Source: an uncultured Eubacteriales bacterium
GTDB lineage: Bacteria; Bacillota; Clostridia; Oscillospirales; Acutalibacteraceae
Length of the DNA: 64,000 bases
NCBI GenBank assembly: GCA_900317815.1
Contig: ONIC01000096.1
Span: 6,012-70,011 of the forward strand
Direction: 5' to 3'
Positions within the stretch are counted from its first letter, which is position 1, and the number at the start of each line of letters is the position of its first letter. Shown here one piece after another: positions 32,289 to 63,916 of this stretch. The position numbers were made by a program, and so were the translations under genes. Below the pieces are notes generated by a model. That model was not told the origin of the DNA. It made no database searches and saw only the letters and a program-made list of their open reading frames with translations.

Positions 32289-32290
32289 TT

Positions 32291-40285: not shown

Positions 40286-40297
40286 AGGAAGAAAAAT

Positions 40298-48100: not shown

Positions 48101-48577
48101 GCAGAGTTTGCTCTGTATGGTCCTACCGAGGAGCTGTCTAAAACACCGCCCGAGGGTGTTGCTGCGACCGTATCGACCCACGGACAGACCCTGAAATACT
48201 ACGGTTCGTTTACATCGGATCAGAACGGATATATAGAAATAGAGAAGGAGAACAACAAGGCGCTCTTCCTTAAAGGCGGGCTTTATGCTCTTGTTGAAAC
48301 AAAAGCACCGACGGGGTATATCCTGAATGATGAAACGATGTTCTTCTATGTACATGAAAAACCCGACAATGCTATTGACGAGATACCCGTATTTCAATCG
48401 CAGTATCCCGTTGTTATAACCAATGTGCTTCAAGGCTTCGATCTGCCTTCCACGGGCAGCTTCGGCGAGCTTGCATTCACAGTTGCAGGTATTACGGCTA
48501 TGAGCACAGCTGTGCTTCTTGGAGTAATACTTTGGCGCAAAAAGATGCGAAAGGGGGGCCCCGATCGCAAGTCATAA
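45116..48577 (+). CDS. Large LPXTG-anchored surface protein, probable pilus tip adhesin
   Basis: 1153 aa. Signal peptide and repeated Ig-like (Cna-B/SpaA-type) segments. E-box-like YALVETKAPTGY. C-terminal LPSTG, hydrophobic segment and RKKMRK tail. Confidence 0.85.
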   Translation: MMKNNDPNNIAAVSVMQHKKRIVRLRILSVLMCITAFITTYAMILPAITASAEYSSDLSEFVDSVSIRDSDGNIIEPGGLVYIGDDYTIDISFSEKGSIDNNKQFQYNENGYMTYQIPRAFATSPVTNGVLTNDSGDNVGTYTIDSSGLMSVCFEEGFIEGTNKASLNVQLSAKVSENQTTGVQTIDFGDYTVEIMLSADGTLDVKKEASHYDLSTHTVDYEVTVKAKHGSISGISYQDTCAPDMTLVAGSVKYYSLDGQTQYNDCPTSLQSNEGFIIKYSMKIDDSVFENKSKLVFNADNTIDVSGTNGEGTPVTVSDDATQKVTSEFLTKTGHLDTESSTLRIRWTVTVGDGYTPVDGLVVKDILGEGLSFDTSERIRITPYRYNPETDKLESDTSRYLSFPLSGPDQNDVVIPSDLNATRCTITYYTIYSIEDGQEKRFTNTVTTTDDTRGTVEETGSIKVDNTGQPPDNIEKSVELSEDGQSLHYTVGVDVYKSWYGKTNVYFEDSFTKVNVDNVEYFFGWGAENFAVKVTYEDGTEKQYALSGEAQEDGTFHPLRSSSDPRVNRVLFNYPRTSLSNSVWKENENVRLTVEYDLPLSTPLYTRDSSKVYSVTEKTVRDILDVAFPIDNTALFYYSEKMHIDDTAQYVEQPDVPLKKHGEEQSNGTIDYTVTFDNNVPETSLLANNGTTYKFTDELKSAAMSYKDGTLRCITYDSDGAVYAEYRFNGSFADYKKTPIAEGSADRIEIPFSEFKWYSGRHTYSNLQGFSEADTRQEDTSRIVFYYTVDVDKQSEIFRSKEQYIELKNQAEITGEKGGGEPYSAGPAESIVQFPNKILDKTVEQLENSNRARFTITLNPSGADLVDNSDEFIIVDRMSDNLTLVLSTVTASKKEGSEFVPITDLHYTYDKDNNIVRFRLPDQKSIIIEYETLINAPLNSTAHVVNSVELEGLSGFTGITDETFTVQNTGGTADGNKFVLPILKQDSLTHEPLENAEFALYGPTEELSKTPPEGVAATVSTHGQTLKYYGSFTSDQNGYIEIEKENNKALFLKGGLYALVETKAPTGYILNDETMFFYVHEKPDNAIDEIPVFQSQYPVVITNVLQGFDLPSTGSFGELAFTVAGITAMSTAVLLGVILWRKKMRKGGPDRKS

Positions 48578-48668
48578 ATATTCTGTCCGTTTTTATGAAC
48601 AGAAATCTGCTGTGCGGGGGCACACAGCAGGGCAAATCCGATATTAATTACCGAAAGGAAGATCACTA

Positions 48669-50090
48669 ATGAAAAAAACTCTTTCCATACTCCTCGCGAT
48701 CGTAATGCTTTTCGCACTTTGTGTTACCGCATACGCTGAGAACGATGACGGATCAATCACCATCGACAATGCTGTAACCGGCGAGAAGTACAACGCTTAC
48801 AAGATCTTTGATCTTACTTACGACGACGACAATGTTACCTACACATATACGACAACAGGCGGCTCCGATGCTTTCCTCACAGCTCTCTCGGGCACAGCGT
48901 CCCCGTTTAATGCTGTTAAGGTCGGCACTACGGATGTTTACAGCATCACTAAGAAAACAGGCGTTACAGATGAGAGTGTTATAAGCTGGCTCAAGTCTCA
49001 CATCACAGACGTTGCCGCTTCGAACAAGCTTGCAGAGAAGACAGGCGCAAACAATGAAGCAAAGTGGGAAAATGTTGAGTACGGTTACTACTATGTAACA
49101 AGCTCCCTCGGTTCCGCTGTAACTGTAAACAGCGCAAAGAAGGACGTTACGATCAAGGACAAGAACTCGCCCGTTTCTGTTACAAAAAAGCAGAGCACAA
49201 CAAACGGCTCCAATTACACAACAGATGAGGTCTCCGCATCTATCGGCGATGAGGTATTCTACGAAGTAACTATCGTTGACGGCGAGGGTACAAATCTTGA
49301 GGTAACATTCACCGATACAATGACAGACGGTCTTACAAACCTCAAAAACTATGTACTTTACAAGAATTCCGTTGACAATGCAAATAAGCTTGCTTTGACG
49401 ACTAACTATACAGTAGAGAGTGAAGACGACCACGGCTTTACGCTTAAGATCAACGCAGCAACTCTTACATCTCTGAACAAGGATGAGAAGATTATCGCTC
49501 GTTACTCCGCTCGCGTAAATTCAAACGCTGTGACGAAGGCAAGCGGTAACAACACGAACACAGCTACAATAACATATTCTCATCAGACAACTACAACATC
49601 GGTAAATGTTACAACTTACAAGATCCAGATCGTAAAGGATAACGCAAACGGCAAGGGCGTTCTTGACGGTGCAACCTTCAGACTTTACGATGCACTCACA
49701 GGCGGCAACGAGATCAAGATTGTCAAGGATTCCGCAGGCAAATACCATGTTGACACACAGGCAGCCACAGGCGCTCTTATCGAGGCAGGTACACCTGTTA
49801 TCACAGGTCTCAAGGCAGGAACATACTACCTCGAAGAGGTCGATTCTCCTAAGGGCTTCAATAAGCTCACAGAGAGAAAGCCTGTAACTGTTTCCGCAGA
49901 TAATATCGCAAGAGTAAACAGCTCTGTTTATGTAAACGGCGGCGTTGAGGTGCAGAACTCCGCAGGTTCTTCGCTCCCCACAACGGGCGGCACAGGCACA
50001 ACGCTTCTCATTATCCTCGGTTCGTTCGCAGTTCTCACAACAGGCGTATTCCTTGTAGCCAACAAGCGTATGAAGAAGGAAATGCTCTGA
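48669..50090 (+). CDS. LPXTG backbone (major) pilin
   Basis: 473 aa. Signal peptide. N-terminal ITIDNAVTGEKYNAYKIFDL typical of isopeptide-forming fimbrial subunits. E-box-like YYLEEVDSPKGF. LPTTG sorting signal. Confidence 0.85.
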   Translation: MKKTLSILLAIVMLFALCVTAYAENDDGSITIDNAVTGEKYNAYKIFDLTYDDDNVTYTYTTTGGSDAFLTALSGTASPFNAVKVGTTDVYSITKKTGVTDESVISWLKSHITDVAASNKLAEKTGANNEAKWENVEYGYYYVTSSLGSAVTVNSAKKDVTIKDKNSPVSVTKKQSTTNGSNYTTDEVSASIGDEVFYEVTIVDGEGTNLEVTFTDTMTDGLTNLKNYVLYKNSVDNANKLALTTNYTVESEDDHGFTLKINAATLTSLNKDEKIIARYSARVNSNAVTKASGNNTNTATITYSHQTTTTSVNVTTYKIQIVKDNANGKGVLDGATFRLYDALTGGNEIKIVKDSAGKYHVDTQAATGALIEAGTPVITGLKAGTYYLEEVDSPKGFNKLTERKPVTVSADNIARVNSSVYVNGGVEVQNSAGSSLPTTGGTGTTLLIILGSFAVLTTGVFLVANKRMKKEML

Positions 50091-50191
50091 TCCGTCGGAT
50101 ATTGTTGTGCGGATAAGCTTTAACGATAACTATATTGCGGGAGATGCTCCTGTTTCGGAGTGTCTCCTGCAATAACAGCAGGGAGAAGCCA

Positions 50192-51037
50192 ATGAAGGTT
50201 CTTGGAAAAACTGTAACTCTGATATTACTTACGATTTTTTTCATTGGTTTCTGCGTACTGTTATATCCCGCAGTAAGTCAGTATTGGAACTCGAAGGTGC
50301 AGTCGCGCGTTGTTGTTGATTACACAAACGAAGTCGAGGAAATGGATCCCGAAATGCACGATAAGCTGCTTTCGCAGGCTGTTCATTATAATGAGCAATT
50401 GGCAGAGCTTGACGCGCCTCTCTTTTCGTATAACGAGATCGAAGGTTACGATACTTCGCTTGACCCGAGCGGAAACGGCGTTATGGGAGTTATATCTATA
50501 GATAAACTCAGAGTCGAGCTGCCGATCCGTCACACAACGAGCGATGACGTGCTGAGCAATTCATGCGGTCATCTTGAGGGAACATCGCTCCCTGTAGGAG
50601 GCAGATCCACTCACTGTGTTCTCTCGGCTCACCGGGGACTTCCGAGCGCAGAGTTGTTCACTCACCTTGATAAGATGGAGGTAGGCGATACCTTCACTAT
50701 CACAACTCTCGGTGATGTTCTGACTTATGAGGTGGAAAGCATTGTTGTCGTGCTTCCGAACGATTCCTCGCAGCTTGCCATAGAATACGGTGCCGACCGC
50801 TGTACGCTGCTGACATGTACGCCATACGGTATCAACACGCATCGCCTGCTTGTAAAAGGCGTCCGCATTGATACAGTCGATAAGAAGAAAATGAATATAA
50901 CAGCGGAGGCATACATTGTAGACCGCTTGATAGTTTCCGCGGCTGTTGCTTTACCGATATTGTTTGTTCTTATAGTAATTGTGATATTTAAGCCTGTAAA
51001 GAAAAATACTGAACTCGGAGGTAGAAGAGGATCGTGA
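50192..51037 (+). CDS. Class C (pilin-polymerising) sortase
   Basis: ATG at 50192. N- and C-terminal TM segments. Catalytic His (LSAHRG), TLLTCTP and a downstream Arg (THRLLV). Confidence 0.9.
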   Translation: MKVLGKTVTLILLTIFFIGFCVLLYPAVSQYWNSKVQSRVVVDYTNEVEEMDPEMHDKLLSQAVHYNEQLAELDAPLFSYNEIEGYDTSLDPSGNGVMGVISIDKLRVELPIRHTTSDDVLSNSCGHLEGTSLPVGGRSTHCVLSAHRGLPSAELFTHLDKMEVGDTFTITTLGDVLTYEVESIVVVLPNDSSQLAIEYGADRCTLLTCTPYGINTHRLLVKGVRIDTVDKKKMNITAEAYIVDRLIVSAAVALPILFVLIVIVIFKPVKKNTELGGRRGS

Positions 51038-52092
51038 TGAAAAAAAGCATAAAAATTCTCAGCACCGTGCTTGCTCTTACTGTCTTGATGACATCATTTG
51101 CTGCGCTTACAGCTTACGGTGACGAAAACGAGAAAAACGGTTCCGCACCCTCGGAATATAACATACTCAAAATATGGTATAAGGCGGATGATTATGTCCT
51201 CACTGACAAAGATATTTCGGTGTATCATATTGCGGATATATCGGCACAGGGAGATTTTTCATATACAGAAGACTTCATAGCTTGTAATATCGAAGTTGAC
51301 GAGCTTTATTCACGCGACAGCTTTGATTCGGTTACATCTGCGTTGTCGTCATATATCTCGCTTAACAGTGTTGCACCGTTTGAGACCGCTCCACTGAATA
51401 ACGAGGGCTGCGCCGTCTTTGAAGACCTGACACGCGGTGTCTATTTTGTAGACGGTTTCTCAGTCAAAAAAGACAGTCTCGCATATTCCTTTGGCTGTGT
51501 GCTTTTTAACTCGTTCTTTACAGAGGAAAAAGCAGATTCTTCCGAGGAAATAAATATTTATCCGAAGCATCAGACATATTCTGCCTCAGATGAAGAGTAC
51601 AGGTGTAAGGTCACAAAGCTCTGGAAAGACAACGGCAAGGAAAGCTCCCGTCCTCAGAGTATCGAGGTCGTTATTTTCAAAAACGGGGAAGAGGATCAGA
51701 GAGTTGTTTTGTCCGATGAAAACAACTGGACGTATTACTGGACAAGCTCCGATTCGGGCGCTGTCTGGAATGTCGCCGAGGTAAACGCTCCGAGCGCTTA
51801 TCGTTCGGAGGTAACGTTGAGCGGATACAATTTCAATATCATAAATTCGGTCATCAACAGCGATACTCCCGACACTCCGACATCTTCCGGGCCCACAGAC
51901 AGCAGCAAGGCTGATAATACGAGCAAACCCGTCTCTCCTGTTTCCAATACGAACGGCGGCAGCGCGTTTTCTCAGGCAGTAAAGACAGGCTTTATCACAA
52001 ATGTGTATTTCTGGATACTTCTGCTCACTGTATCCGGTACTGCTTTTATTCTTTTGAGTGTCGCAGGAAGACGCAAGGAGACTGAAGAATAA
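51037..52092 (+). CDS. Cna-B-domain minor/basal pilin with a non-canonical AVKTG sorting signal
   Basis: Its ATG overlaps the sortase stop (TGATG). Signal peptide. Cna-B-like KVTKLWKDNGKESSRPQSIEVVIFKNGE. C-terminus is QAVKTG, then a hydrophobic segment, then RRKETEE. Confidence 0.75.
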   Translation: MKKSIKILSTVLALTVLMTSFAALTAYGDENEKNGSAPSEYNILKIWYKADDYVLTDKDISVYHIADISAQGDFSYTEDFIACNIEVDELYSRDSFDSVTSALSSYISLNSVAPFETAPLNNEGCAVFEDLTRGVYFVDGFSVKKDSLAYSFGCVLFNSFFTEEKADSSEEINIYPKHQTYSASDEEYRCKVTKLWKDNGKESSRPQSIEVVIFKNGEEDQRVVLSDENNWTYYWTSSDSGAVWNVAEVNAPSAYRSEVTLSGYNFNIINSVINSDTPDTPTSSGPTDSSKADNTSKPVSPVSNTNGGSAFSQAVKTGFITNVYFWILLLTVSGTAFILLSVAGRRKETEE

Positions 52093-52708: not shown

Positions 52709-53488
52709 TTAAACGGTGTCAAGTCCCGCTTTTTTTGCCTGTGTATGTTGTTGATCTCTCGGTATATCGTAGATCCTGCTGCCCTTTTTGAATTTTGCGC
52801 CTGTCTGGTGAAAATGAAATCCGACGCCGTATTCAACGCATTGCATATGTGAGCCGAGTATCCATGCAAAGTCGCACAGACGAGCGTTGGGACCCGATTC
52901 ACCGCCAACAGACACACATTCGATCAGTCCTCCGTATTTTTTCAGAAACGGACGTATATTGATGCTTTCAAGCATAGGCTCGTGTATTATTGATCTGTGC
53001 CTGAGCGGCAGTTCCAGAAAAATAGGCAGCCGTGTGTCTGCAAGCGCCTGGTTCTCACAAGTGCAGCAGATCTCGACATTTTCATAGCCGCAGCCCCAGT
53101 CGGAAGGCAGACATTCCCTTATACGCTCCGGTCTTTTCGTGATCATATAGAAAAAGCAATCGGAGCGTTGTCTCATTATGCTCCATGCATCCTGCCGCCA
53201 GAGATCGGCGTCCTTGTGAAAAAAATCAGAGGTAAAGCACGTCATAAAAGTCGTTCCGCTCGGGTATTTGTATTCACCTTTACGACTGCCTGTTCCGTGC
53301 CTTGAGATCGGCAGAGAAAAAGCGGTTGTCTTGTTCAGTACAGTAGTATCTTTTCCGTACTCGGCATCTCTGCGGTATACATAGCAGTTATAGCAGCCTG
53401 GGGAGATCTTTGTGCAGCCGTGCCACGGATTCCACGTCACCGTCTCGACAGCGGCGGACGCTTCGGGGAATAATGACAACTGATACAT
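52709..53488 (-). CDS. DUF5131 (phage Gp37/Gp68) family protein
   Basis: WNPWHGCTKISPGCYNCY N-terminal Cys motif, FTSDFFH, ITKRPERI and GGESGPNAR. The ATG at 53488 has AAGGAG upstream; an alternative ATG lies at 53509. Confidence 0.8.
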   Translation of the reverse strand: MYQLSLFPEASAAVETVTWNPWHGCTKISPGCYNCYVYRRDAEYGKDTTVLNKTTAFSLPISRHGTGSRKGEYKYPSGTTFMTCFTSDFFHKDADLWRQDAWSIMRQRSDCFFYMITKRPERIRECLPSDWGCGYENVEICCTCENQALADTRLPIFLELPLRHRSIIHEPMLESINIRPFLKKYGGLIECVSVGGESGPNARLCDFAWILGSHMQCVEYGVGFHFHQTGAKFKKGSRIYDIPRDQQHTQAKKAGLDTV

Positions 53489-53521
53489 ACGCCCGCCGCT
53501 CCTTTCCATAGTGGTTATCTA

Positions 53522-53785
53522 TCAGAAATAGTAATTGATGACCGAATCGATCGCTCCTACATATTCATATCCCGACTGCTTGTCAGACATCAAGCTGTAG
53601 CTTGTGTCGTTTTTGAACATGGAGAGTTTTCCTTCTCTGTAGGGTTCATCGGTTTTGACAAAAAGCAGCGCGTCTTCTCCGATGCCGTAATCCCTGAAGT
53701 TGATACTGTCCGTTGCTTTGATGAAAGAAACTGTGCTTGCTGGTCGTTTTCCCCCGTATGCCTGTGTAGTAGTCAGATTTGTCAT
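53522..53785 (-). CDS. 87-aa protein, possibly a stand-alone degenerate S24/LexA-like beta-domain
   Basis: Strong RBS (GGAGGAG) 8 nt upstream. By eye it is collinear with the C-terminal domain of the upstream XRE-S24 protein (see findings). Confidence 0.6.
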   Translation of the reverse strand: MTNLTTTQAYGGKRPASTVSFIKATDSINFRDYGIGEDALLFVKTDEPYREGKLSMFKNDTSYSLMSDKQSGYEYVGAIDSVINYYF

Positions 53786-53801
53786 AATATTGCTCCTCCT
53801 C

Positions 53802-54599
53802 TTATCCTCTGTTATTAACAGAAATATATTTTTCTATATCTCTTTTGCTTGCAAGATCCTCAGACTCGTCGATCACGCCTATTACCTTGCCGATGTAAAA
53901 CACATTATCCCAATCGTTGAATGTCATAGTGTCGTAGTTTTCGTTGAATGAGTGAAGACCGTCGCGCTGATACTGCTTGACGTATGTCTCATTGCCGACT
54001 ATAAAAGCGCCGATGTCGCCCGGATTTGGTTTCGGACAATTCGGATATCTCTGAACGAGCAGCAGATCTCCGCTGTGATAGACAGGTTCCATACTGTCAC
54101 CGTTGACCGTGAAAACGCAGTCGGCTCTTTCGACTTCCGGTGAGACGTAAAGATATATAGGCTCGTCGCTCTCCTCAAATTCGGTAGGATCTCCGATACC
54201 TGCGGCAAGCGATCGGCTGTAGTGTATCAGCTCCCTGATCTTCGGGATCTCCTTCTGCTCCTCAATGTACTTGAGCGACTTTATCGTATTATCCACAACA
54301 TACTTGTGATCTTCCTCGAGCGATCGGTAATCGCTCAGCAGAAGTTGTTCGCGTTTTGTATAGCGGAGCATAGGATCTGCTATATCGAATAATTCGTAAA
54401 GCGTGATCCCAAGAGCTTTGCAAAGAAGCGGCAGGGTGTCAACATCGGGTCGTGATCGTCCGTTCTCCCAGTTACTGATCGAATTGCCGACGACTCCGAC
54501 TCGTTTTCCAAGCTCCTTTTGTTCAAGTCCGAGCTTTTCGCGGTAATACTTGATACTTCTGCATACCGGTGACGGAGTTTTCTTTTCGTTTGAAGCCAT
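53802..54599 (-). CDS. XRE-family HTH repressor fused to an S24 (LexA/CI-like) autopeptidase domain
   Basis: HTH segment (LGLEQKELGKRVGVVGNSISNWENGRSRP). S24 Ser box (VNGDSMEP) and Lys box (ETYVKQY). Confidence 0.9.
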   Translation of the reverse strand: MASNEKKTPSPVCRSIKYYREKLGLEQKELGKRVGVVGNSISNWENGRSRPDVDTLPLLCKALGITLYELFDIADPMLRYTKREQLLLSDYRSLEEDHKYVVDNTIKSLKYIEEQKEIPKIRELIHYSRSLAAGIGDPTEFEESDEPIYLYVSPEVERADCVFTVNGDSMEPVYHSGDLLLVQRYPNCPKPNPGDIGAFIVGNETYVKQYQRDGLHSFNENYDTMTFNDWDNVFYIGKVIGVIDESEDLASKRDIEKYISVNNRG

Positions 54600-54849: not shown

Positions 54850-55599
54850 TTAAAGCTCGATGTAGTAGTTATAATTGTAGTTGCTGCCGAAGTTGTTAGC
54901 CCAGTACTCTGTGCCGTTTACTCTGTAGCAGATCGCATACTCGAAATTCTCATACTCTTCATAGCTGTTGATATCGCTGATATCAATGTATGTTGTCCAG
55001 AGCTCTGTGCCGTCATCGTTAGTGCTGTTGTAGGAGAGAGCCTGATCGCTGTAGGTGTTCCAGCCGTCCGTTGTAAATCTTACGAATACGTTCTTGTTGT
55101 AAGCGTAGTTCTGAAGAACAGCGTCGATACGATACTGTGTGTTGTCGTAGGAACGGAAGTTTCTCTTAGCAGCAACAGGTGCTGTGCCGAGCTTTGCGCC
55201 TGTGTAGTTCTGACCGTTGTTGTTGTCCCAGTATGTAACGCCGTCTGCAACATACTTGAGAACGTACTGGCAGCCGAGTGTGCCGAATGTTGCCTTCCAG
55301 ATCTTAGAGCCGTCGCCGAGTGTTGTTACATACTCAGCTTCGGCATCGCGCCAGCCTGCAGCGATGTTAGCGTAGTAGTGAACGTAAACTTCCTGATTCT
55401 GTGCGTTGTCCTTAGTCTGGATGTATACCTCGTATGACTCGGAACCCCAGTGGGAGAATGTTACGTCTGCCGAATAGAGGCTTACCTTATCTGTGTAAGC
55501 GTTTGCTGTAGTTGTACCTGCGATGCAGAACATGCTGAAGAGTACTGCGAGTGTAAGAAGCATAGCAGCTGCTCTGTTTGCCTTGAATGTCTTTTTCAT
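54850..55599 (-). CDS. Secreted protein made of two tandem CBM21-like (starch/glycogen-binding) modules
   Basis: ATG at 55599 follows GGAGGAG. Signal peptide. Each ~100-aa repeat ends in the CBM21 hallmark (GVTYWDNNNGQNY; FEYAICYRVNGTEYWANNFGSNY). Confidence 0.75.
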   Translation of the reverse strand: MKKTFKANRAAAMLLTLAVLFSMFCIAGTTTANAYTDKVSLYSADVTFSHWGSESYEVYIQTKDNAQNQEVYVHYYANIAAGWRDAEAEYVTTLGDGSKIWKATFGTLGCQYVLKYVADGVTYWDNNNGQNYTGAKLGTAPVAAKRNFRSYDNTQYRIDAVLQNYAYNKNVFVRFTTDGWNTYSDQALSYNSTNDDGTELWTTYIDISDINSYEEYENFEYAICYRVNGTEYWANNFGSNYNYNYYIEL

Positions 55600-55953
55600 T
55601 TTGATCTCCTCCATTTTGTTATGGACTGTTAACTAAGGGTTTTGTCTGTTCCCTTGGTGCGAGTATATAGTAACAGATGAGAAACCAAAAATCAAGCATT
55701 TTCAGACAATCTTCTTTTTAATCTATCTATTGGGTAAATTGAACTAATTATATATTGAGAATTTGTGCAACGTTACATTTTGATTGGTCAACTTACCTAA
55801 CACGACCAACCTGTGTTTGTGCATAGATGCCATACAAATGTGTGGAGATGATATTTTATAAAGAATATAAAAGACAAATCTTTCCCATTTGTTCAATGCA
55901 GTAAGTTAACAAAATATAACAATTTACGATCGGAACGTTCTTGGCATATCTGT

Positions 55954-56495
55954 TTATCTGAACCATTTATCCGCCGCAGTAGGTCTGTCATAACCCCAGT
56001 CTTCGGGGACAGCTTCGGCAGTCTTTAAAAATCCGTTCTTTTCGAGAACTCTTTCGGACGCTTGATTTTCTATCATCGTACTGGCTGTGATTATTTCTAT
56101 ATCGGTATTTGAATAAAGATAATCTACCATAAGAGCGACAGTCCTTGTAGCGATGCCTTTTCCCCAGAACTTAGGGGAAAGCCTGTAGCCGATACACGTT
56201 TTTTGTATCGACTCTTTATAACCGTAAAATTCCGCAAGTCCGCACAATGCTCCGCTGTCCTGAAGTACGATCCCGATATCAGAGATTCTTTTTCCTTAAA
56301 GCTCTTTTCGTAAAGCTCATATATCATAACTTTCATATCTCTGTATTGCTGCTCAAACAAAAAGGTAGGCAGGTATTGGTAGACATTTTTGTCATTTGAA
56401 AATTCGGCTAAGAATTCAGCGTCACTGTATTCCAGCTTTTTTAGTACTATCATTTCATCTTTTAACATCGGTATTTCCGAGAATAGTTTAATCAT
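55954..56495 (-). pseudogene. GNAT (RimJ/RimL-like) N-acetyltransferase interrupted by a frameshift
   Basis: The overlapping ORFs 56124-56495 and 55954-56247 together make one GNAT. The frames switch at an A5 run on the coding strand (plus-strand TTTTT, 56289-56293). Confidence 0.75.
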
Positions 56496-56691
56496 ACGAT
56501 CATCTCCCTTTCCTATTATAGCACATTTTCTGCGATCTGCTTATATATCTTAGAATTTGATTAAAAAAACATTAGATCTTGATTAAACTGTGGAACCGGA
56601 TACTTTTATGATGTATAATAAGCCTGATGAATATGAAAACAAGCTCATGTGATCGTTACTGCAGGTACTCAGAGCGACACGGCGGAAGGTA

Positions 56692-57501
56692 ATGACTATG
56701 TTAAAATATCCTATATTGTTAGTTCACGGAATGGGTTTTCGAGACAACGGTATAATCAATTATTGGGGACGGATACCGAAGATATTTACAGACGACGGGA
56801 ACGAGGTCTTCTACGGCGGTCAGGACAGCAACGGTACGATCGAGGACAATGCACAGATGCTCAGACGACGTATCAGAAGTCTGATCCGAGAAACAGGCTC
56901 CGAAAAGCTCAACGTGATAGCCCACTCAAAGGGCGGAATGGATATGCGCTACGCTATTTGTCAGCTCGGTATGGATAGATACGTTGCCTCGCTGACTACG
57001 ATCAACACACCGCACAACGGTTCAGGATCCATTGATAAGGTACTTATGCTGCCTTCTCCTCTCATCAGGTTTGCAGGCGGCTGCTCCGACTTGTGGCTGA
57101 GATTGCAGGGAGATAAAAACCCGAACGCATACAAGGTCTTTCAGTCGTTCTCTACGGAATACGCAAAGAAATTCAACGAAGAAAATCCCGACTTCCCCGA
57201 TATCTATTATCAAAGCTATGCCTGCGTTATGAAAAACAGCCTGAGCGATATTGTGATGATGATACCTCATGCAATAGTAAATGCTTTTGAGGGTGAAAAT
57301 GATGGTCTTCTCACCCCGGAAGCCGTAAAGCACGGCGACTTCAAGGGCGTTGTCCGCAGCAATTCTGTAAGAGGTATCTCGCACTGTGACGAGGTCGATA
57401 TGCGCCGCCGCAGATTTACCAAAAGACAGGGAGACGGAGTGTCCGATATTCTTGATATGTATCGTGAGATACTGCAAACATTAAAAGAAAAAAATCTGTG
57501 A
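56692..57501 (+). CDS. Alpha/beta-hydrolase lipase/esterase (LipA-like small lipase family)
   Basis: PILLVHGMGF oxyanion region and nucleophile elbow AHSKGG. Confidence 0.8.
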   Translation: MTMLKYPILLVHGMGFRDNGIINYWGRIPKIFTDDGNEVFYGGQDSNGTIEDNAQMLRRRIRSLIRETGSEKLNVIAHSKGGMDMRYAICQLGMDRYVASLTTINTPHNGSGSIDKVLMLPSPLIRFAGGCSDLWLRLQGDKNPNAYKVFQSFSTEYAKKFNEENPDFPDIYYQSYACVMKNSLSDIVMMIPHAIVNAFEGENDGLLTPEAVKHGDFKGVVRSNSVRGISHCDEVDMRRRRFTKRQGDGVSDILDMYREILQTLKEKNL

Positions 57502-57547
57502 AAATAAGTCGGAATGACAGCTTCAAAACGAATAGACAAGCTGACTG

Positions 57548-57590
57548 CGGCACCCTTCCTGTTAAAGGTCGGGTGCTGTTTTCGTTATTC
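57548..57590 (+). terminator. Terminator after the lipase gene
   Basis: CGGCACCC / GGGTGCTG stem (one G-U pair) followed by TTTTCGTT. Confidence 0.55.
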
Positions 57591-57626
57591 TGACTAAATT
57601 GACGGACAATTTTTTTATGCTTCGAC

Positions 57627-57683
57627 ATATTGACACGGTGTCACAATAAATGTATAATAATTATAACGACACAATGTCAATAT
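57627..57683 (+). promoter_or_regulatory. Promoter of the flavin/flavodoxin operon with overlapping palindromes
   Basis: TTGACA (57630-57635), 17-nt spacer, TATAAT (57653-57658). Palindrome TGACAC-G-GTGTCA over the -35. A 9-bp inverted repeat (ATATTGACA ... TGTCAATAT) brackets the promoter. Confidence 0.55.
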
Positions 57684-57712
57684 ATCTTTTACAGATCGAG
57701 GAGAGATGACTT

Positions 57713-58648
57713 ATGAAGAGATTACCGAAAATAGCTCTCGGAGCATGGGCGTGGGGAAATGACGGAACATTCGGCGGCGAGCTTTCATCGGAAACGCTTC
57801 GCCCGATATTTGATACGGCAATGAAAAACGGACTCAACCTCTGGGATACTGCTTACGCTTACGGTATGGGAACATCGGAAAAGGTACTTGCGGGATTTGT
57901 CAGAGAGCTTCCGAGAGACGCTTACCTGATCTCGGATAAGTTCACTCCGCAGTGCGCCGACGGCAGCTCACCGAATGCAATGAGCGATATGATCGGTATG
58001 CAGCTTGAGCTTATGGGACTCGACAGCTTTGATATTTATTGGATCCACAACGTATGGGACGCACCGAAATGGACACAGGAGCTTGCAAAGTATTATGAGG
58101 GCAAGGAGAATGTTCCGCTGCTCGGCGTTTCTAATCACAACCTTGCAGAGATCAAGCAGGCTGATGAGATCTTAAAGTCGCATGGACTAAAGCTGTCTGC
58201 CGTTCAAAATCATTACAGTCTTATCAACCGTTCTTCTGAGAAATCCGGAATACTTGATTATTGCAGAGAGAATGACATTACATTTTTCTCGTATATGGTA
58301 CTTGAGCAGGGCGCTCTCTCGGGCAAGTATGACACATCTCATCCGATGCCTGACGGTTCTGCAAGAGCGCAGACCTACAATCCCGTTCTCGATAAGCTCG
58401 AGATACTGAACACAGAGCTTAAGAGACTTGCCGATAAATACTCGGTCGGCGCGGCGCAGATACCTGTTGCGTGGGCGATCGCGAAGGGAACGCTTCCGAT
58501 CATCGGCGTTACAAAGACGAGCCACGTTGAAGACGCAGTAAAGGCTGCTGATGTTGTTCTGAGCAGCGAAGAGACAGCGGAGCTTGAAGCGCTTGCGGAC
58601 AGTCTCAACATCAATGCGATCCGTTTTTGGGAAAAGGAGATGAAGTGA
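57713..58648 (+). CDS. Aldo/keto reductase
   Basis: 311 aa. LWDTAYAYG motif with the catalytic Asp/Tyr region, and the typical AKR C-terminus. Confidence 0.9.
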   Translation: MKRLPKIALGAWAWGNDGTFGGELSSETLRPIFDTAMKNGLNLWDTAYAYGMGTSEKVLAGFVRELPRDAYLISDKFTPQCADGSSPNAMSDMIGMQLELMGLDSFDIYWIHNVWDAPKWTQELAKYYEGKENVPLLGVSNHNLAEIKQADEILKSHGLKLSAVQNHYSLINRSSEKSGILDYCRENDITFFSYMVLEQGALSGKYDTSHPMPDGSARAQTYNPVLDKLEILNTELKRLADKYSVGAAQIPVAWAIAKGTLPIIGVTKTSHVEDAVKAADVVLSSEETAELEALADSLNINAIRFWEKEMK

Positions 58649-58649
58649 T

Positions 58650-59195
58650 ATGAAAAAGAATATCGGAGCAGTTTTGGCGCTCTATCCATGCCCCGTAATA
58701 GTAGTGGGCGCTATGGTTCAAGGTAAGCCGAGCTGGACGCTTGCAGCTCATGCGGGCATCGTTGCTCACTCACATCTTATGGTGTCGCTCGTTTCGGCGC
58801 ATTATATCAACAAGGGGATACGTGAGAACAAGGTCTTTTCTGTAAACATCGTTGACGCATCGTGGCTTAAAGAAGCCGATAAAATGGGAATTGTCAGCGG
58901 AAACAAAACAGACAAGTCGGGCGAATTTGCATATTCAATCGGAGAAAACGGCGCTCCGCTGATCGACAAGGCTAAGGTGTCGATTGAGTGCGAAGCGGAC
59001 GGAAACTACGAGCTTGAACATTTCGATAATTTTATCAGCAAGATACTTGCGACATATGCCGATGAAGAAGTCCTGAATGAACAGGGAAAGATCGACTATC
59101 ACACGTTCAAGCCTGCGCTTTTCGAGTTTCCAACGTATGAATACTTTGCCGCAGGAGAAAAACTGGGCGACTGCGGGAAGATGAATAAAGAATGA
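58650..59195 (+). CDS. Flavin reductase-like (FMN-binding split-barrel) protein
   Basis: 181 aa. Flavoredoxin-like beginning (LYPCPVIVVGAMVQGKP). Starts 1 nt after the AKR stop. Confidence 0.8.
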   Translation: MKKNIGAVLALYPCPVIVVGAMVQGKPSWTLAAHAGIVAHSHLMVSLVSAHYINKGIRENKVFSVNIVDASWLKEADKMGIVSGNKTDKSGEFAYSIGENGAPLIDKAKVSIECEADGNYELEHFDNFISKILATYADEEVLNEQGKIDYHTFKPALFEFPTYEYFAAGEKLGDCGKMNKE

Positions 59196-59236
59196 TAAGA
59201 TCACAGAATACGAGTAATTGAAAGGGGATCTCTTGT

Positions 59237-60019
59237 ATGAAAAGGACAGTTCTTTTGATTGCGGCATTACTTTGCGTTTTCTGGCTCTCAGCCTGCGGCA
59301 GTGCGCAGAAAAGCGAGGTATCGGCGCAGGGAGATGTGTCATCTGCAATGTCAAAGCAGGAGACGACGGAAAGCGCGAAAGTCTCTGAAGACTCCGAAGC
59401 CGCGAATGCAATTTCATCGACCGATGCGTCAGACAGCAAAACAGAGAGTAAGTCGGATATCAAAACCGAAAAGATCGACTCGGAAGACAGCGAGACGGTC
59501 GTCAGCGAAAGCAGCAGTATTGCTTCCGTTTCCGAGGAGACGGCTTCGGATAATACCGTGGTGGTGTACTTCTCGGCAACAGGTACTACTCGCGGCGTTG
59601 CAGAGCGTATCGCTTCTGTTACAAATGCCGATCTATACGAGATAGTCCCTGCTGAACCGTACAGCGATGCCGATCTCGACTGGAACGACAAAGACAGCCG
59701 CACTACTCTTGAAATGAACGATCCCGATATCCGCCCTGCGATCGCAGATGATACTATAGATCTCAGCGGATATACGACGGTATATATCGGTTATCCGATA
59801 TGGTGGGGAGACGCTCCGCGAATTATGAGTACGTTCGTAGAGTCCCACAGCTTCGACGGTATGACGGTTATACCGTTCTGTACATCGGGCGGCAGCAGTA
59901 TAGGAAGAAGCGGAGATAACCTCGCATCTCAGGCGGGCAGCGGCAACTGGCTCCCGGGCGACAGGCTTGACGGCGGGATCTCGGAGGAAGAGATAGAAAA
60001 CTGGATAAGCGGATCATAA
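59237..60019 (+). CDS. Lipoprotein-anchored flavodoxin (extracytoplasmic)
   Basis: Signal peptide with lipobox LSAC. A Ser/Glu/Asp/Thr-rich linker of about 85 aa. Flavodoxin domain (VVYFSATGTTRGVAERI...GYPIWWGDAPRI...IPFCTSGGS). Confidence 0.85.
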   Translation: MKRTVLLIAALLCVFWLSACGSAQKSEVSAQGDVSSAMSKQETTESAKVSEDSEAANAISSTDASDSKTESKSDIKTEKIDSEDSETVVSESSSIASVSEETASDNTVVVYFSATGTTRGVAERIASVTNADLYEIVPAEPYSDADLDWNDKDSRTTLEMNDPDIRPAIADDTIDLSGYTTVYIGYPIWWGDAPRIMSTFVESHSFDGMTVIPFCTSGGSSIGRSGDNLASQAGSGNWLPGDRLDGGISEEEIENWISGS

Positions 60020-60034
60020 TAGGGAGTGATCGTC

Positions 60035-60757
60035 ATGAAGACAAAGACAAGCAATACCATAAAAAGAGCAGTCGATGTCATATTGACGATCCTTCTGCTT
60101 TTTCTGACAGCGTATCAGGTGACGGGAGAAATGCTGCATGAGTGGTTCGGAATCGCAATGACTGTCCTGCTGATCGTACATCATGTGCAAAACAGAAAAT
60201 GGTACGGCGCATTGTTCAAAGGAAAGTACAATCCGTACCGCATTACCCTGACTGCTCTAAATACGCTTTTGCTTTTGTCGATAGCTATGACAGCGCTCAG
60301 CGGAATGTCTATGAGCTGTCATGCGGTACCGTTTATGTACGGCTTTATAGATGTTATGACGGCAAGACGTCTTCATCTTGCTGTGTCATACTGGACGTTC
60401 ATCTTTATGGGCGTTCACATAGGGCTGCATATCAGGACTATGACCGCAAAGCTCGGCGAAAAAAAGACGATGATCCTGAACATCGTATTCACGATCTTGT
60501 CGGGCGCAGGGCTGTGTCTGTTTCTGCGAGCAGGGATAGTGAACTATATTCTTTTCAGAACGCACTTTGCTTTCCTCGATTACGAGACTCCGAAGTGGCT
60601 CGTTATATTTGAAAACCTTGCAATGCTCCTTTTCTGGGCGCTGATCGGGTATACAGCCGCTCTCATATCACAGAAAAAGGGTGAAAAATACACTGCAAAA
60701 CCGCTTTTGCTGCCGACCGCTGCCGTTTTTATCGGCGTACTGCTTTATCTTGCTTAA
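60035..60757 (+). CDS. DUF4405-type polytopic membrane protein
   Basis: ATG at 60035 follows AGGGAG. Multiple TM helices with conserved-looking His residues (LHEWFG, LLIVHHVQNRKWY, GVHIGLHI). Confidence 0.75.
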   Translation: MKTKTSNTIKRAVDVILTILLLFLTAYQVTGEMLHEWFGIAMTVLLIVHHVQNRKWYGALFKGKYNPYRITLTALNTLLLLSIAMTALSGMSMSCHAVPFMYGFIDVMTARRLHLAVSYWTFIFMGVHIGLHIRTMTAKLGEKKTMILNIVFTILSGAGLCLFLRAGIVNYILFRTHFAFLDYETPKWLVIFENLAMLLFWALIGYTAALISQKKGEKYTAKPLLLPTAAVFIGVLLYLA

Positions 60758-60794
60758 AATAAAAAATTACCCCGAAAATGAGGTGCAACGTATT

Positions 60795-61328
60795 ATGAAG
60801 ATAGTTATACTTTTTGCAAGTCCGAATTCAAACGGTTCAACGAGCATTCTTGTGAACAGCTTTAAAAGCGGCGCACAGGAAAGCGGCCACAGCGTTGAGA
60901 TCATTGACGTATGTCGGCTGAAGATCTCTCCTTGTACAGGCTGTGTTGCCTGCGGTTATGAGGGAGAATGTGTTCAGCATGACGATAACGGCAAGATCAG
61001 GAATAGCCTTCTGTCGTGTGATATGGTCGTTTTCGCAACGCCTCTTTATTATTATGGTATGTCGGCTCAATTGAAAGCTGTTATTGATCGTTTTTGCGCT
61101 TATAACAGCAGTCTGAACAGAAGACATCTGAAATCGGCTCTGCTTGCCGTTGCGTGGAACACCGCAGACTGGACGTTTGAAGCGCTCTCGGTTCATTATA
61201 AAACTCTCGTTCGTTACATTGGTCTCGAGGATATGGGTATGGTGCTTGGTTTCGGCTGCGGAACGCCTTCAATGACAAGATCGGGAAAATATCCCAAGGC
61301 CGCTTACGATCTTGGCAGATCGCTGTAA
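60795..61328 (+). CDS. Iron-sulfur flavoprotein-like NAD(P)H-dependent FMN reductase
   Basis: ATG at 60795. MKIVILFASPNSNGST flavodoxin-like start and a compact Cys cluster (CTGCVACGYEGEC). Confidence 0.8.
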   Translation: MKIVILFASPNSNGSTSILVNSFKSGAQESGHSVEIIDVCRLKISPCTGCVACGYEGECVQHDDNGKIRNSLLSCDMVVFATPLYYYGMSAQLKAVIDRFCAYNSSLNRRHLKSALLAVAWNTADWTFEALSVHYKTLVRYIGLEDMGMVLGFGCGTPSMTRSGKYPKAAYDLGRSL

Positions 61329-61342
61329 GGGAGGGTAACAGA

Positions 61343-62515
61343 ATGAAAAAAAGAATCTTTTCTGCTGTTATGATCGCTGCTGTTTCAGCCGTTTTGTTTC
61401 CGCTTTTTGTATCTGCCGAAACGAGTGGACCGACAAATGATATGTACGGCGACATTGATTACGATGGTATAATATCTTCTGCGGACGCATTGCAGGTGCT
61501 GCGCTGCAGTGTCGGAACAGACGAGTATGATACTGTGCAGCAGGGCCTGTCGGATATTGACGACGACGGGAGTATCACAGCATCCGATGCTCTCGATATC
61601 CTGCGGTACAGCGTCGGTCTGAGCGTTGAGACTAAGGTCGGACGAGATGTAGACGGCTCACAAAAAACGGATCAAAAGAAAACACTTGTGGCGTACTTCT
61701 CCCGAACGGGAAATACAGAAACAGTGGCGGACTATATAATCGAGCTGACAAACGCAGACAGATTTGTGATCGAGGCGGCAGACCCGTATTCCGATGCCGA
61801 TATAGAGTATAATAGCGACTGCCGCGCAAACCGCGAGCAGAATGACAAATCAGTACGACCCGAGATCAAAGGTAAAATAGACGATATATCACAATACGAT
61901 ACGATCTATCTCGGCTACGCAATATGGTGGGGGCAGGAGCCTCGGATAATTGATACCTTCCTGGAGAGCTACGATTTTTCCGATATTACTGTTATACCGT
62001 TCTGTACTTCGGCAAGCTCAGGCATTTCCGCAAGCGAACGCAATATCAGAGAACTTGGTGTTGAGTTCGGTGAATTAAAGACGGGAAGACGTTTTGCGAT
62101 AGGCAGCACGAGGGAGCAGATCTCCGAGTGGGTCGGGGAAATATCTCCGACAAGGCAGAGCGACGTTGTATATGCGCACATCGGTGAAAATACGCTGCCG
62201 ATAAAGCTTGAAGACAATTCCTCGGCAAGAGCGTTTGAAGAACTGCTGAAAAACGGTGATCTGACTTTGAAAATGGACGATTACGGGAATTTTGAGAAAG
62301 TAGGCGAGCTCGGTTTTGCGCTTGAGAGAAACGACGAGGATATAACCACCGTTCCAGGCGACTTAATTCTTTATCAAGGTGATAAGATAACTATTTATTA
62401 TGATATCAACAGCTGGAGCTTTACAAGGCTCGGACATATACAGGGTAAATCGCAGGAGGAACTCAGATCAATACTCGGAAGCGGAAGCGTTACCGTGATA
62501 TTCAGTCTCAGATAA
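61343..62515 (+). CDS. Secreted dockerin - flavodoxin - cyclophilin-like three-domain protein
   Basis: Signal peptide (VSAETS). Duplicated dockerin Ca-binding segments (GDIDYDGIISSADALQVLR, SDIDDDGSITASDALDILR). Flavodoxin domain (VAYFSRTGNTE...GYAIWWGQEPRI...IPFCTSASS). C-terminal cyclophilin-like domain (LEDNSSARAFEELL...GDLILYQGDKITIYY...GSGSVTVIFS). Confidence 0.85.
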   Translation: MKKRIFSAVMIAAVSAVLFPLFVSAETSGPTNDMYGDIDYDGIISSADALQVLRCSVGTDEYDTVQQGLSDIDDDGSITASDALDILRYSVGLSVETKVGRDVDGSQKTDQKKTLVAYFSRTGNTETVADYIIELTNADRFVIEAADPYSDADIEYNSDCRANREQNDKSVRPEIKGKIDDISQYDTIYLGYAIWWGQEPRIIDTFLESYDFSDITVIPFCTSASSGISASERNIRELGVEFGELKTGRRFAIGSTREQISEWVGEISPTRQSDVVYAHIGENTLPIKLEDNSSARAFEELLKNGDLTLKMDDYGNFEKVGELGFALERNDEDITTVPGDLILYQGDKITIYYDINSWSFTRLGHIQGKSQEELRSILGSGSVTVIFSLR

Positions 62516-62527
62516 TGTATCACATAA

Positions 62528-62549
62528 CACCGCTCCGATCGGGGCGGTG
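62528..62549 (+). terminator. Hairpin after the flavodoxin operon (weak U-tract)
   Basis: CACCGCTCC-GATC-GGGGCGGTG. Confidence 0.45.
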
Positions 62550-62687
62550 CATCGTTATATTCCGGGCAGAATAATGTGCGCTCGCACGATCTGAAGATCG
62601 GACGTTTTTGAGATATCACACCTGAGCCATAATACAAAGTCGATTCAAAGATGACATTTATGTCAGCCGGTCTCGTCTGTATTTGTG

Positions 62688-62716
62688 TTGCATTGAGTCA
62701 TATTGTGTGATATAAT
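62688..62716 (+). promoter_or_regulatory. Promoter for the LRR-dockerin gene, leaving a leader of about 130 nt
   Basis: TTGCAT, 17-nt spacer, TATAAT. Confidence 0.55.
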
Positions 62717-62851
62717 ACGGGTAATATGTTTATAAACCTGAAGAAAAGAGCTGCGGGACAGCCTGACGAAGCTGCCTGACAAAAATACCGATCGGAGTCT
62801 GAAAAATGCTGCGTTCGGTCAAGCTTTACACGAATACAGAAAGGTTGGTCG

Positions 62852-63916
62852 ATGGATATGAAAAAGTATTTCGGAAAGTTCCTCTGCCTGATCGCTGCAG
62901 CGGCGATCTTTGCGGGGACGTTCCAATTTGCTGCCGCAGCCGATGGGGCAGATGCGATACACGGCAGCTTCGGTGATTACGATTACGAGCTGCTCGACGA
63001 CGGCACGGTATCTGTCACATATTACAGGGGACACGACTCGGACGTGAAGCTGCCAAATCTCATAGACGGCAAACCTGTAACGCAGATAGCAAGAGGAGCA
63101 TTTGCTGCCTGCTCTGCAATAAAAAGCGTAACGATCCCCGACTCTGTTACAAAGATCTGCAGCAGCGCATTTGCCGTTTGCGATTCGCTTGAATATGTGA
63201 GTATCCCCGACAGTGTGACCGAAATCGAAATGGACGCATTCTATCTGACAAAGTGGATCGACAGCTTTGAAGGTGATTTTTTGATCGCAGGCAAAGGTAT
63301 ACTTTTGAAATATAAGGGAGACAGCCCGAGTGTGGTCATTTCTGATAATGTCCGTGTAATAGGCTGCGGCGCTTTGTCGGATCATACCGAGCTTAAAAGC
63401 GTGACTATACCCGATTCGGTCGAAATCGTGGACGCTCTTGCTTTTTATCATACAGGTCTTGAAAAGGTCACGATACCCAATTCCGTTACGAGGATAGGAG
63501 AAAGCGCGTTCAGCCGATGCAGCGGTCTTACAAGCATTTTTATCCCGTCCACAGTAAAGGAGATCGGAGAAAGCGCATTTTCATTGTGCGATGAATTAAC
63601 TGCGGAATGCCGCCGGGGTTCCGCAGCAGAAGCATATTGTAAGGAGAATGATATCCCGTTTGAAGCAAGCGAGGGAGAGGACCTTCCGCCCGAAAAAGAG
63701 GAGCCAAAACCGACACGCACGGGTGATATCGACGGCGACGGAGAGATAACCTCCAACGACGCTTTGATGATACTTCGCTCAAGCGTGGGTGCGTTTGAGC
63801 TGACTCAATCGCAAAAATCTGCTGCCGACACTGACTCGGACCGTGAGATAACGTCAAATGACGCATTGAAGGTGCTGCGGTTCAGTATCGGAGCGATCGT
63901 CTCGTTCGATCAATAA
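62852..63916 (+). CDS. Secreted BspA-type leucine-rich-repeat protein with a C-terminal dockerin
   Basis: Signal peptide. Repeated ...SVTIPDSVT.I...AF..C..L... units. C-terminal GDIDGDGEITSNDALMILR / DTDSDREITSNDALKVLR. Confidence 0.85.
   Translation: MDMKKYFGKFLCLIAAAAIFAGTFQFAAAADGADAIHGSFGDYDYELLDDGTVSVTYYRGHDSDVKLPNLIDGKPVTQIARGAFAACSAIKSVTIPDSVTKICSSAFAVCDSLEYVSIPDSVTEIEMDAFYLTKWIDSFEGDFLIAGKGILLKYKGDSPSVVISDNVRVIGCGALSDHTELKSVTIPDSVEIVDALAFYHTGLEKVTIPNSVTRIGESAFSRCSGLTSIFIPSTVKEIGESAFSLCDELTAECRRGSAAEAYCKENDIPFEASEGEDLPPEKEEPKPTRTGDIDGDGEITSNDALMILRSSVGAFELTQSQKSAADTDSDREITSNDALKVLRFSIGAIVSFDQ

Follow-up and report, generated by a model that had tools for sequence, protein, structure and literature searches.

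Within the 64-kb stretch of contig ONIC01000096.1 analyzed here (the window), an open reading frame (ORF) on the forward strand, positions 61343-62515, encodes an exported protein of 390 amino acids (aa) in which a dockerin is followed by a Flavodoxin_4 domain and a cyclophilin-like barrel. This gene is the last of six that may form one operon (table 1). A preliminary description made from the sequence alone had delimited the same ORF, which has an ATG start and a 390-aa product, and had named a cleavable signal peptide, two dockerin Ca-binding repeats, a complete flavodoxin domain, and a cyclophilin-like C-terminal domain, all of which hold up in the analyses below. The function it suggested, namely the supply of reductant to oxidative polysaccharide or lignin chemistry or the scavenging of peroxide, finds no support in the sequence: The operon encodes no carbohydrate-active enzyme (CAZyme), oxidase, or peroxidase.

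Domain Architecture of the Exported Protein

The ORF is preceded, 7 nt 5' of its ATG, by the Shine-Dalgarno sequence GGGAGGG. Read from the translation, the N-terminus is of the classical Sec type: MKKR is followed by 19 hydrophobic residues and a predicted cleavage site between VSA and ET, with no lipobox, lipobox cysteine, or twin-arginine motif in the signal peptide. In the AlphaFold2 (AF2) model, the predicted local distance difference test (pLDDT) score is <50 for aa 1-32, and three separately folded domains follow, with disordered linkers at aa 96-109 and 269-273.

The two dockerin repeats are GDIDYDGIISSADAL (aa 36-50) and SDIDDDGSITASDAL (aa 70-84). Their 12-residue Ca loops, DIDYDGIISSAD (aa 37-48) and DIDDDGSITASD (aa 71-82), both carry D at positions 1, 3, 5, and 12 and S/T at position 9, and ALxxLRxSVG stands after each; loop positions 10/11 read S-A and A-S, respectively, and the repeats are internally symmetric, with 14 of 23 positions identical. 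The Dockerin_1 profile (PF00404), which the preliminary description had expected the module to match, covers aa 35-86 with 27.3 bits (E 4e-6; 28.4 bits in a second scan), over its curated cutoff of 22.9. When searched alone with phmmer, the dockerin segment matches the solved dockerins 2ccl_B, 4uyp_B, 1ohz_B, 8ajy_B, and 5m2o_B (E 7e-4 to 0.035), which come from C. thermocellum, A. cellulolyticus, and Ruminococcus flavefaciens, and AF2 predicts a three-helix dockerin fold (helices 46-56, 64-70, and 80-90; pLDDT 84-88). The module thus combines tandem loop-helix repeats, profile score, and similarity to solved structures in the manner of a type I dockerin. The pattern D.[DN].[DN][GD].{5}D occurs as three loops only in all six frames of the 64 kb, two of them here and one in the dockerin gene that lies next downstream, so the motif is not background.

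Flavodoxin_4 (PF12682) matches aa 113-266 with 134.9 bits; NCBIfam PRK07116 gives 167.7 bits, under its cutoff of 198. The domain finds 4j8p, 3klb, and 4ici by sequence (phmmer, E 1e-28 to 2.5e-32), and its model (pLDDT ~92) superposes on 4ici, 4j8p, and the flavin mononucleotide (FMN)-bound 3klb with Foldseek TM-scores of 0.88-0.91. The loops of the flavin site, that is, the phosphate loop S120-x-T-G-x-T125, W195-W196, and T222-S-x-S-S-G227, are present, with S120, T122, G123, T125, W195, G197, T222, S223, S225, and S226 invariant in 43 homologues, and the FMN-site residues align with the same motifs in 3KLB. We consider that the domain may well bind FMN, and would do so noncovalently.

The C-terminal barrel belongs to Cyclophil_like2 (PF18050; 75.7 bits, aa 280-387) and is modeled with a pLDDT of 94.4 alone and ~90 in the full-length model. 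Comparison with the Protein Data Bank by sequence and profile gave chance Tudor-domain matches and nothing significant, and the barrel fold became apparent only when the domain was modeled on its own with AF2 and compared by Foldseek, which matched TM1367 (1zx8), AF2241 (2nnz), 3kop, and the Pictet-Spenglerases KslB/McbB (TM-score ~0.7, E 3e-4); sequence identity to any cyclophilin-like structure is 12-17%. On the strength of this modeled fold, the barrel could well be a small-molecule-binding or catalytic partner of the flavodoxin. A full-text literature search found no paper on Cyclophil_like2 or PF18050.

A Putative Six-Gene Operon and Its Surroundings

Six genes on one strand, none more than 41 nt from the next, stand behind a promoter-like site that is the sole perfect consensus match within positions 55500-63000, and 336 nt separate the stop of the last of them from the next gene. 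Judging from this spacing, the six may well form one operon.

Table 1. Features of the operon region in window coordinates.
Feature	Position	Strand	Basis and remarks
Promoter-like site, TTGACA-17-TATAAT	57630-57658	+	Consensus match, 12/12; 55 nt 5' of first gene of putative operon
Aldo-keto reductase (AKR), 311 aa	57713-58648	+	Pfam Aldo_ket_red, 168 bits; no signal peptide; first gene
Flavin_Reduct-family protein, 181 aa, cytoplasmic	58650-59195	+	PF01613, 44.8 bits; starts 2 nt past AKR stop
Lipoprotein Flavodoxin_4	59237-60019	+	LSAC lipobox; Pfam, 190.6 bits at aa 107-258
DUF4405 membrane protein, putative diheme cytochrome b	60035-60757	+	Pfam, 28.9 bits (cutoff 26.7)
FMN_red/Flavodoxin_2 protein, cytoplasmic, iron-sulfur flavoprotein (Isf)-like	60795-61328	+	Pfam FMN_red, 79 bits
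Signal peptide-dockerin-Flavodoxin_4-Cyclophil_like2 protein, 390 aa	61343-62515	+	Pfam, AF2; last gene
Sec signal peptide, aa 1-25, predicted cleavage VSA/ET	61343-61417	+	Read from sequence
Dockerin, aa 35-92, two Ca loops (aa 37-48, 71-82), three helices	61445-61618	+	Pfam, AF2
Flavodoxin_4 domain, aa 111-267	61673-62143	+	Pfam, phmmer, Foldseek
Cyclophil_like2 beta-barrel, aa 274-390	62162-62512	+	Pfam, AF2, Foldseek
GC-rich hairpin, 9-bp stem, GATC loop	62528-62549	+	13 nt past stop of 61343-62515; read from sequence
Second terminator-like site	62587-62600	+	Scan
Signal peptide-BspA-type LRR_5-C-terminal dockerin, separate neighbor	62852-63916	+	LRR_5, 133 bits; Dockerin_1, 35.8 bits

Several of the partner genes carry features beyond their Pfam matches. 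In the lipoprotein paralogue, the translation shows an S/E/T-rich low-complexity linker of ~85 residues between lipobox and flavodoxin domain. The DUF4405 ORF opens at a GTG at position 60026; the protein has a basic N-terminus, ~7 hydrophobic segments, and the histidines H35, H49, H114, H128, and H132, invariant in four homologues. Its predicted topology agrees with an extracellular C-terminus, which a fusion protein in R. flavefaciens 007c (below) requires. The FMN_red protein has, as read from its translation, the cysteine motif C47-x2-C-x2-C-x5-C59; this CX2CX2CX5C arrangement is similar to the compact 4Fe-4S motif known from archaeal iron-sulfur flavoproteins. The presence of DUF4405, two cytoplasmic flavin reductases, an AKR, and a lipid-anchored paralogue in the same operon speaks for a chain of electron carriers on the cell surface that is fed from the membrane.

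The leucine-rich repeat (LRR)-dockerin gene downstream forms a transcription unit of its own. Its dockerin is similar in sequence type to that of the 390-aa protein and reads SND at loop positions 10-12 of both repeats; with it, the organism has at least two dockerin proteins. On the other side, ~6 kb 5' of ORF 61343-62515, lies a 254-aa protein with a CBM21/CBM53 starch-binding module (54850-55614, - strand), which may mean that the host handles starch, be it in place of cellulose or alongside it.

A Pfam scan of 45 window ORFs indicates that the rest of the window is ordinary chromosome, including SecDF, the aspartyl-tRNA synthetase (AspRS), GatAB, RecG, a pyrimidine operon, a HydABC-type hydrogenase, and a sortase-pilin cluster. 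In the hydrogenase region (31716-40158, + strand), the [FeFe]-hydrogenase is of the HydABC type, has a Nuo51-like subunit, and is probably electron-bifurcating; behind it come two radical-SAM genes, which are probably HydE/HydG, and the gene of the HydF maturase, and past these BioY (40166-40885). The sortase-dependent pilus/adhesin cluster (45116-52092, + strand) comprises a 1153-aa protein with Collagen_bind, SpaA, and LPXTG, a second protein with SpaA and LPXTG, a sortase, and a Cna_B protein. The interval from this cluster to the CBM gene holds a possible prophage remnant (52709-54599, - strand), which consists of a DUF5131 protein and an HTH_3/Peptidase_S24 (LexA/CI-like) repressor. Two further proteins, of 546 aa (9870-11510, + strand) and 246 aa (30656-31396, + strand), have no Pfam match at E 1e-5.

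Relatives and Host Lineage

Proteins with a signal peptide, Flavodoxin_4, and Cyclophil_like2 are very common in rumen Ruminococcus: There were 3639 matches, and the best 120 are nearly all of this type, four of these 120 having a precomputed Pfam dockerin. When 1.84 billion representatives were searched exhaustively with HMMER, residues 1-270 being the query, and Pfam scans followed, Dockerin_1 at or above the Pfam threshold was found together with Flavodoxin_4 in at least nine clusters at 50% identity. Their dockerin sequences are unlike one another and their domain orders varied (P0159, for example, is CypL2-X-Doc-Fld4), indicating that the combination has originated, or been retained, more than once. 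Elsewhere, exported Flavodoxin_4 is anchored by S-layer homology (SLH) domains (P0133), a C-terminal transmembrane helix (P0122), or fusion to DUF4405, and the window paralogue has its lipobox; against this variety of surface anchors, the dockerin would be one more.

Fusions and neighborhoods tie these flavodoxins to the other operon products. The syntenic DUF4405 gene of R. flavefaciens 007c (L044:11272-13437) encodes a single 722-aa protein, DUF4405-FGE-sulfatase-Flavodoxin_4, and in L051 and L056 a DUF4405 gene lies beside a Flavodoxin_4 gene; no obvious apbE was found among the ORFs flanking the syntenic 007c locus. P0133 likewise combines its two SLH domains with an FGE-sulfatase domain and two Flavodoxin_4 domains. 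In a strict anaerobe, such a connection of a domain of the formylglycine-generating enzyme (FGE) type with a cytochrome and flavodoxins is puzzling. In L036:3375-5003 and in P0123, a signal peptide precedes a fusion of AKR and Flavodoxin_4, which in P0123 also includes a dockerin and a cyclophilin-like domain; these fusions connect the AKR chemistry of the operon with the exported flavoprotein. Once exported, the AKRs of L036 and P0123 would have no obvious source of NAD(P)H.

The N-terminal module of the orthologues follows the pattern YTxxDxxNLQDFLLAKP...YDLNGDGxWDVFDLCLM, with one Ca loop and two helices (e.g., P0032 aa 40-90, L044:9752-10525, and L041:10019-10771). It matches Dockerin_1 over profile positions 12-56 only (13.9-25 bits) and aligns with full dockerins in the expected register, the match being weak (hhalign probability 14%). 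We considered an assignment to the R. flavefaciens group 2 truncated dockerins, which have a single repeat, are C-terminal, carry Gly-Arg at positions 10/11, and bind the cohesin ScaE (PMC12270676); this was rejected, as the module is N-terminal and its positions 10/11 are A/V/T-F/Y, not Gly-Arg. The modules may be truncated dockerins of a new, N-terminal class that is separate from group 2 of strain FD-1. A further motif, D[AT][VF]SAAT, stands directly past the signal peptide, at about aa 29-38, in 11 of 42 homologues (P0013, P0014, P0021, P0032, P0037, P0057, P0064, P0076, P0101, P0109, and P0119). It is one residue off the ApbE motif [S/T]GA[S/T] and absent from the window protein; in the orthologues that carry it, an N-terminal tether may hold flavin covalently.

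The exact 390-aa protein is present in assemblies of runs ERR2027896 and ERR3275099, which we take to be cattle-rumen metagenomes, and a variant with 95% identity is encoded on a contig that shares the downstream gene order, that is, Isf-like, flavodoxin-dockerin, and LRR-dockerin. By AspRS, the window stands nearest to RUG777 (95%, partial) and RUG080 (89%), both uncultured Clostridiales, followed by metagenome-assembled genomes of the Acutalibacteraceae type at ~80%. By this marker, the host is an uncultured rumen Clostridia lineage and no characterized cellulosome or amylosome producer. Ruminococcus flavefaciens had at first been assumed as the host, from an operon identity of 64-82% to strain 007c (L044), and was discarded when it did not appear among the 80 best AspRS matches. 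The identities to 007c are 82% for the AKR, 78.5% for the Isf-like protein, and 64% for DUF4405. At the DNA level, the operon is 71-76% identical to that of 007c, and its GC content, overall and at third codon positions (GC3), matches the rest of the window; any transfer of the operon would therefore be old, and a recent horizontal transfer is unsupported. The resemblance to 007c despite the AspRS affiliation suggests an old lateral exchange between rumen lineages.

An Electron-Export Proposal, Its Alternatives, and Known Systems

We propose, and give about an even chance, that the ORF 61343-62515 product is a docked protein with noncovalent FMN, the distal element of a six-gene electron-export operon, and that it reduces a small extracellular acceptor. 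In the route that we infer, cytoplasmic NAD(P)H- or flavin-dependent reductases (the Isf-like FMN_red protein, Flavin_Reduct, and possibly the AKR) would supply electrons, the DUF4405 diheme b cytochrome would carry them across the membrane, and the lipid-anchored Flavodoxin_4 would pick them up on its flexible tether of ~85 residues and pass them to the docked Flavodoxin_4-cyclophilin-like protein. The latter would be Sec-exported, soluble, and made of three modules, loading its FMN outside the cell, and its dockerin would plug into a cohesin that most likely belongs to a protein anchored at the cell surface. Nothing but the dockerin could retain this otherwise soluble protein and, since the electron source lies in the membrane, a cell-anchored cohesin makes a more sensible partner than a fiber-bound scaffold. 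Candidate acceptors are a plant-derived quinone or carbonyl electrophile, a flavin or Fe(III) as electron sink, and O2; the recurring AKR link, the TetR regulators of the relatives, and the small-molecule-binding barrel fold favor a carbonyl or quinone substrate. A broader reading, which we hold to be doubtful, is that rumen and gut Clostridia use cohesin-dockerin pairs to wire redox proteins onto their surface as a modular electron-transfer assembly. In such an assembly, electrons would run from DUF4405 over the tethered lipoprotein flavodoxin to docked modules that reduce plant electrophiles or other external acceptors where the cell attaches to fiber, and the one-loop N-modules of the R. 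flavefaciens orthologues would be new, functional truncated dockerins serving the same purpose.

Several observations weigh against the electron-export proposal. No cohesin was found among the 45 scanned window ORFs, nor was there an ApbE match among them or a flavin transporter in the window. Published extracytosolic Flavodoxin_4 proteins are flavinylated on a Ser/Thr of an insertion between beta1 and alpha1, at a [S/T]GA[S/T]-like site (PMC11334425); this insertion is missing here, with no gap relative to 3KLB across YFSRTGNTETVA, and neither [ST]GA[ST], by eye, nor the regular expression [DSN]..[ST][GA]A[ST] was found in the 390-aa protein. With the insertion absent and no apbE or flavin transporter in the window, the FMN would have to be captured and held noncovalently outside the cell. 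The link to the cytochrome is not universal, as DUF4405 adjoins the flavodoxin-cyclophilin gene in 3 of 59 loci of relatives besides the window, and most R. flavefaciens orthologues sit with a TetR regulator, a cytoplasmic Flavodoxin_4, and Isf-like genes. Flavodoxins go unmentioned in the exoproteome paper on R. flavefaciens 007, in its main text as well as its text supplements. The AF2 predicted TM-score (pTM) of the 390-aa protein is 0.46, a value that permits no statement on interdomain geometry.

The preliminary description's claim that the protein is addressed to a cohesin scaffold remains plausible. That it is a cellulosome or amylosome subunit acting at the fiber, as a source of reductant for oxidative polysaccharide or lignin enzymes or as a scavenger of O2 or peroxide, we consider quite unlikely. 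Such a role could draw on a dockerin that is real and symmetric, on the LRR-dockerin next door and the CBM21/CBM53 protein 6 kb upstream, and on the FGE-sulfatase-family domain of the 007c DUF4405 partner, which makes an O2-directed function conceivable, FGE enzymes being O2-activating copper enzymes. However, the rumen is anoxic, and neither the operon nor the 64 kb holds a partner that is a lytic polysaccharide monooxygenase (LPMO)-like protein, a laccase, a peroxidase, or another CAZyme. In Pfam the protein itself has no CAZy-type domain, its cargo being Flavodoxin_4 and Cyclophil_like2; the relatives use cell-envelope anchors (lipid, SLH, transmembrane), none of them scaffold-specific; and a membrane cytochrome with cytoplasmic reductases can feed only a protein held near the cell. 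A dockerin fold may also bind Ca without binding cohesin and serve oligomerization or some other envelope contact, in which case the electron-transfer model may still hold. Here the lack of a cohesin gene in the window is joined by a host that is no known cellulosome producer and by the one-loop remnants of most orthologues, at or below the Pfam threshold and aligned to full dockerins with the low hhalign probability given above. We nevertheless judge this unlikely: Both Ca loops and both helices of the window module are intact and symmetric, as in dockerins with dual binding modes, a second canonical dockerin gene is adjacent, and single-loop dockerins of R. flavefaciens do bind cohesin (PMC12270676).

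Two further alternatives concern the flavodoxin rather than its anchor. Exported Flavodoxin_4 modules could capture free flavins and hold them for uptake or storage, with no redox role, the dockerin serving to stop diffusion; the lack of a covalent flavinylation site and of a nearby apbE would fit reversible binding, and there are several exported paralogues per genome. Yet the operon has no flavin transporter of either the energy-coupling factor (RibU) or the ATP-binding cassette type, and has instead a heme-type membrane protein, two flavin reductases, and an AKR, whose fusions, like those of DUF4405, point to redox turnover, and we find pure flavin capture very unlikely. The genes could also be a stress regulon directed against plant quinones and aldehydes, TetR-regulated in the relatives, whose exported protein takes its electrons from reductants in the environment or from a diffusible shuttle and not from DUF4405. 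The usual neighbors in relatives (TetR, AKRs, cytoplasmic Flavodoxin_4, and Isf-like reductases) are of this kind, a large ORF in L028 looks, by eye, like a carboxymuconolactone decarboxylase or cupin, and DUF4405 is usually not adjacent. It is improbable all the same, because DUF4405 is adjacent or fused in the window, in R. flavefaciens 007c, in L051, and in L056, and because protein-bound FMN outside the cell needs a dedicated electron source for turnover.

The electron-export proposal, if borne out, would matter in several respects. Dockerins have been seen almost wholly as addresses of CAZymes and of a few structural or protease-related proteins, so that a cofactor-bearing electron carrier would extend the range of their cargo by a class. 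In Gram-positive bacteria, the flavoproteins found in work on extracytosolic electron transfer are held by lipid anchors and have covalent flavins, and the locus suggests docking between proteins and noncovalent FMN as further options. The flavodoxin-cyclophilin family is abundant in R. flavefaciens, a principal fiber degrader of the rumen; a defined function, whether detoxification of phenolic aldehydes or quinones, an electron sink, or O2 tolerance at the fiber, would bear on rumen fermentation and on the engineering of designer cellulosomes, and would be a first functional handle on Cyclophil_like2.

Among known structures, the flavodoxin domain is 37-40% identical to Bacteroides 3KLB (the FMN complex), 4J8P, and 4ICI and has an identical phosphate loop and aromatic flavin loops; these are, however, single-domain chains of 156-171 residues, whereas the window protein is exported and its flavodoxin flanked by two extra domains. 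The barrel shares its fold, at TM-scores of ~0.7, with TM1367 (1ZX8), AF2241 (2NNZ), and KslB/McbB, and in the latter pair the cyclophilin-like fold binds an aromatic small molecule. It differs from all of them in being exported and fused to a flavodoxin, is 12-17% identical in sequence, and has no established catalytic residues in common with them. At the level of the pathway, PplA of Listeria monocytogenes is a lipid-anchored protein whose FMN-bind domains carry covalent FMN and whose membrane step consists of the quinone pool and EetA/B. There, too, a surface-tethered flavoprotein ends a chain that moves cytoplasmic reducing power across a Gram-positive membrane; the window has DUF4405 for the membrane step and a dockerin, which PplA lacks.

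We found no description of a flavin protein as dockerin cargo. None of the papers returned by a full-text literature search appears to concern a dockerin-flavodoxin protein, flavodoxin being named in PMC4611034 only within pyruvate-flavodoxin oxidoreductase; a search for extracytosolic flavodoxin in Ruminococcus returned nothing, and the supplements of the six-strain ruminococcal cellulosome paper have no flavodoxin entry. The dockerin cargo of R. flavefaciens FD-1 comprises glycoside hydrolases (GH), carbohydrate esterases (CE), polysaccharide lyases (PL), carbohydrate-binding modules (CBM), peptidases, transglutaminases, serpins, LRR and cohesin proteins, and modules of unknown function, and no redox module (PMC2930009). 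The FD-1 proteins with non-CAZyme cargo, namely serpins, LRR proteins, peptidases, and transglutaminases, have, like ours, a signal peptide and a dockerin with cargo other than a glycoside hydrolase, and one, SIGN-Doc-SERPIN, shares the N-terminal placement (PMC2930009). This placement was rightly called less common in the preliminary description, with 19 N-terminal dockerins in FD-1 compared with 32 internal and 156 C-terminal ones (PMC2930009). The symmetry of the window dockerin is shared with the FD-1 group 4 dockerins, which bind the cell-wall cohesin ScaE; it differs in its S-A/A-S at positions 10/11, where groups 2 and 4 have G-R, in its lineage, and in carrying a cofactor-bearing redox domain.

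The closest parallel is found in those gene clusters of Firmicutes in which DUF4405 is joined by apbE, a flavin transporter, and an extracytosolic Flavodoxin_4 that is flavinylated (PMC11334425; mSystems 2024, Light laboratory). An Oscillospiraceae DUF4405 protein has been purified as a heme-b protein, its four central histidines being arranged like those of MsrQ- or PepSY-type cytochromes (PMC11334425). The window has the same exported Flavodoxin_4 beside a DUF4405 with conserved histidines, comes from an Oscillospirales-type lineage, and would likewise serve extracytosolic electron transfer. Whereas it lacks the apbE, the flavin transporter, and the flavinylation insertion of those clusters, it adds to them a dockerin, a cyclophilin-like domain, and genes for cytoplasmic Isf-like, Flavin_Reduct, and AKR proteins.

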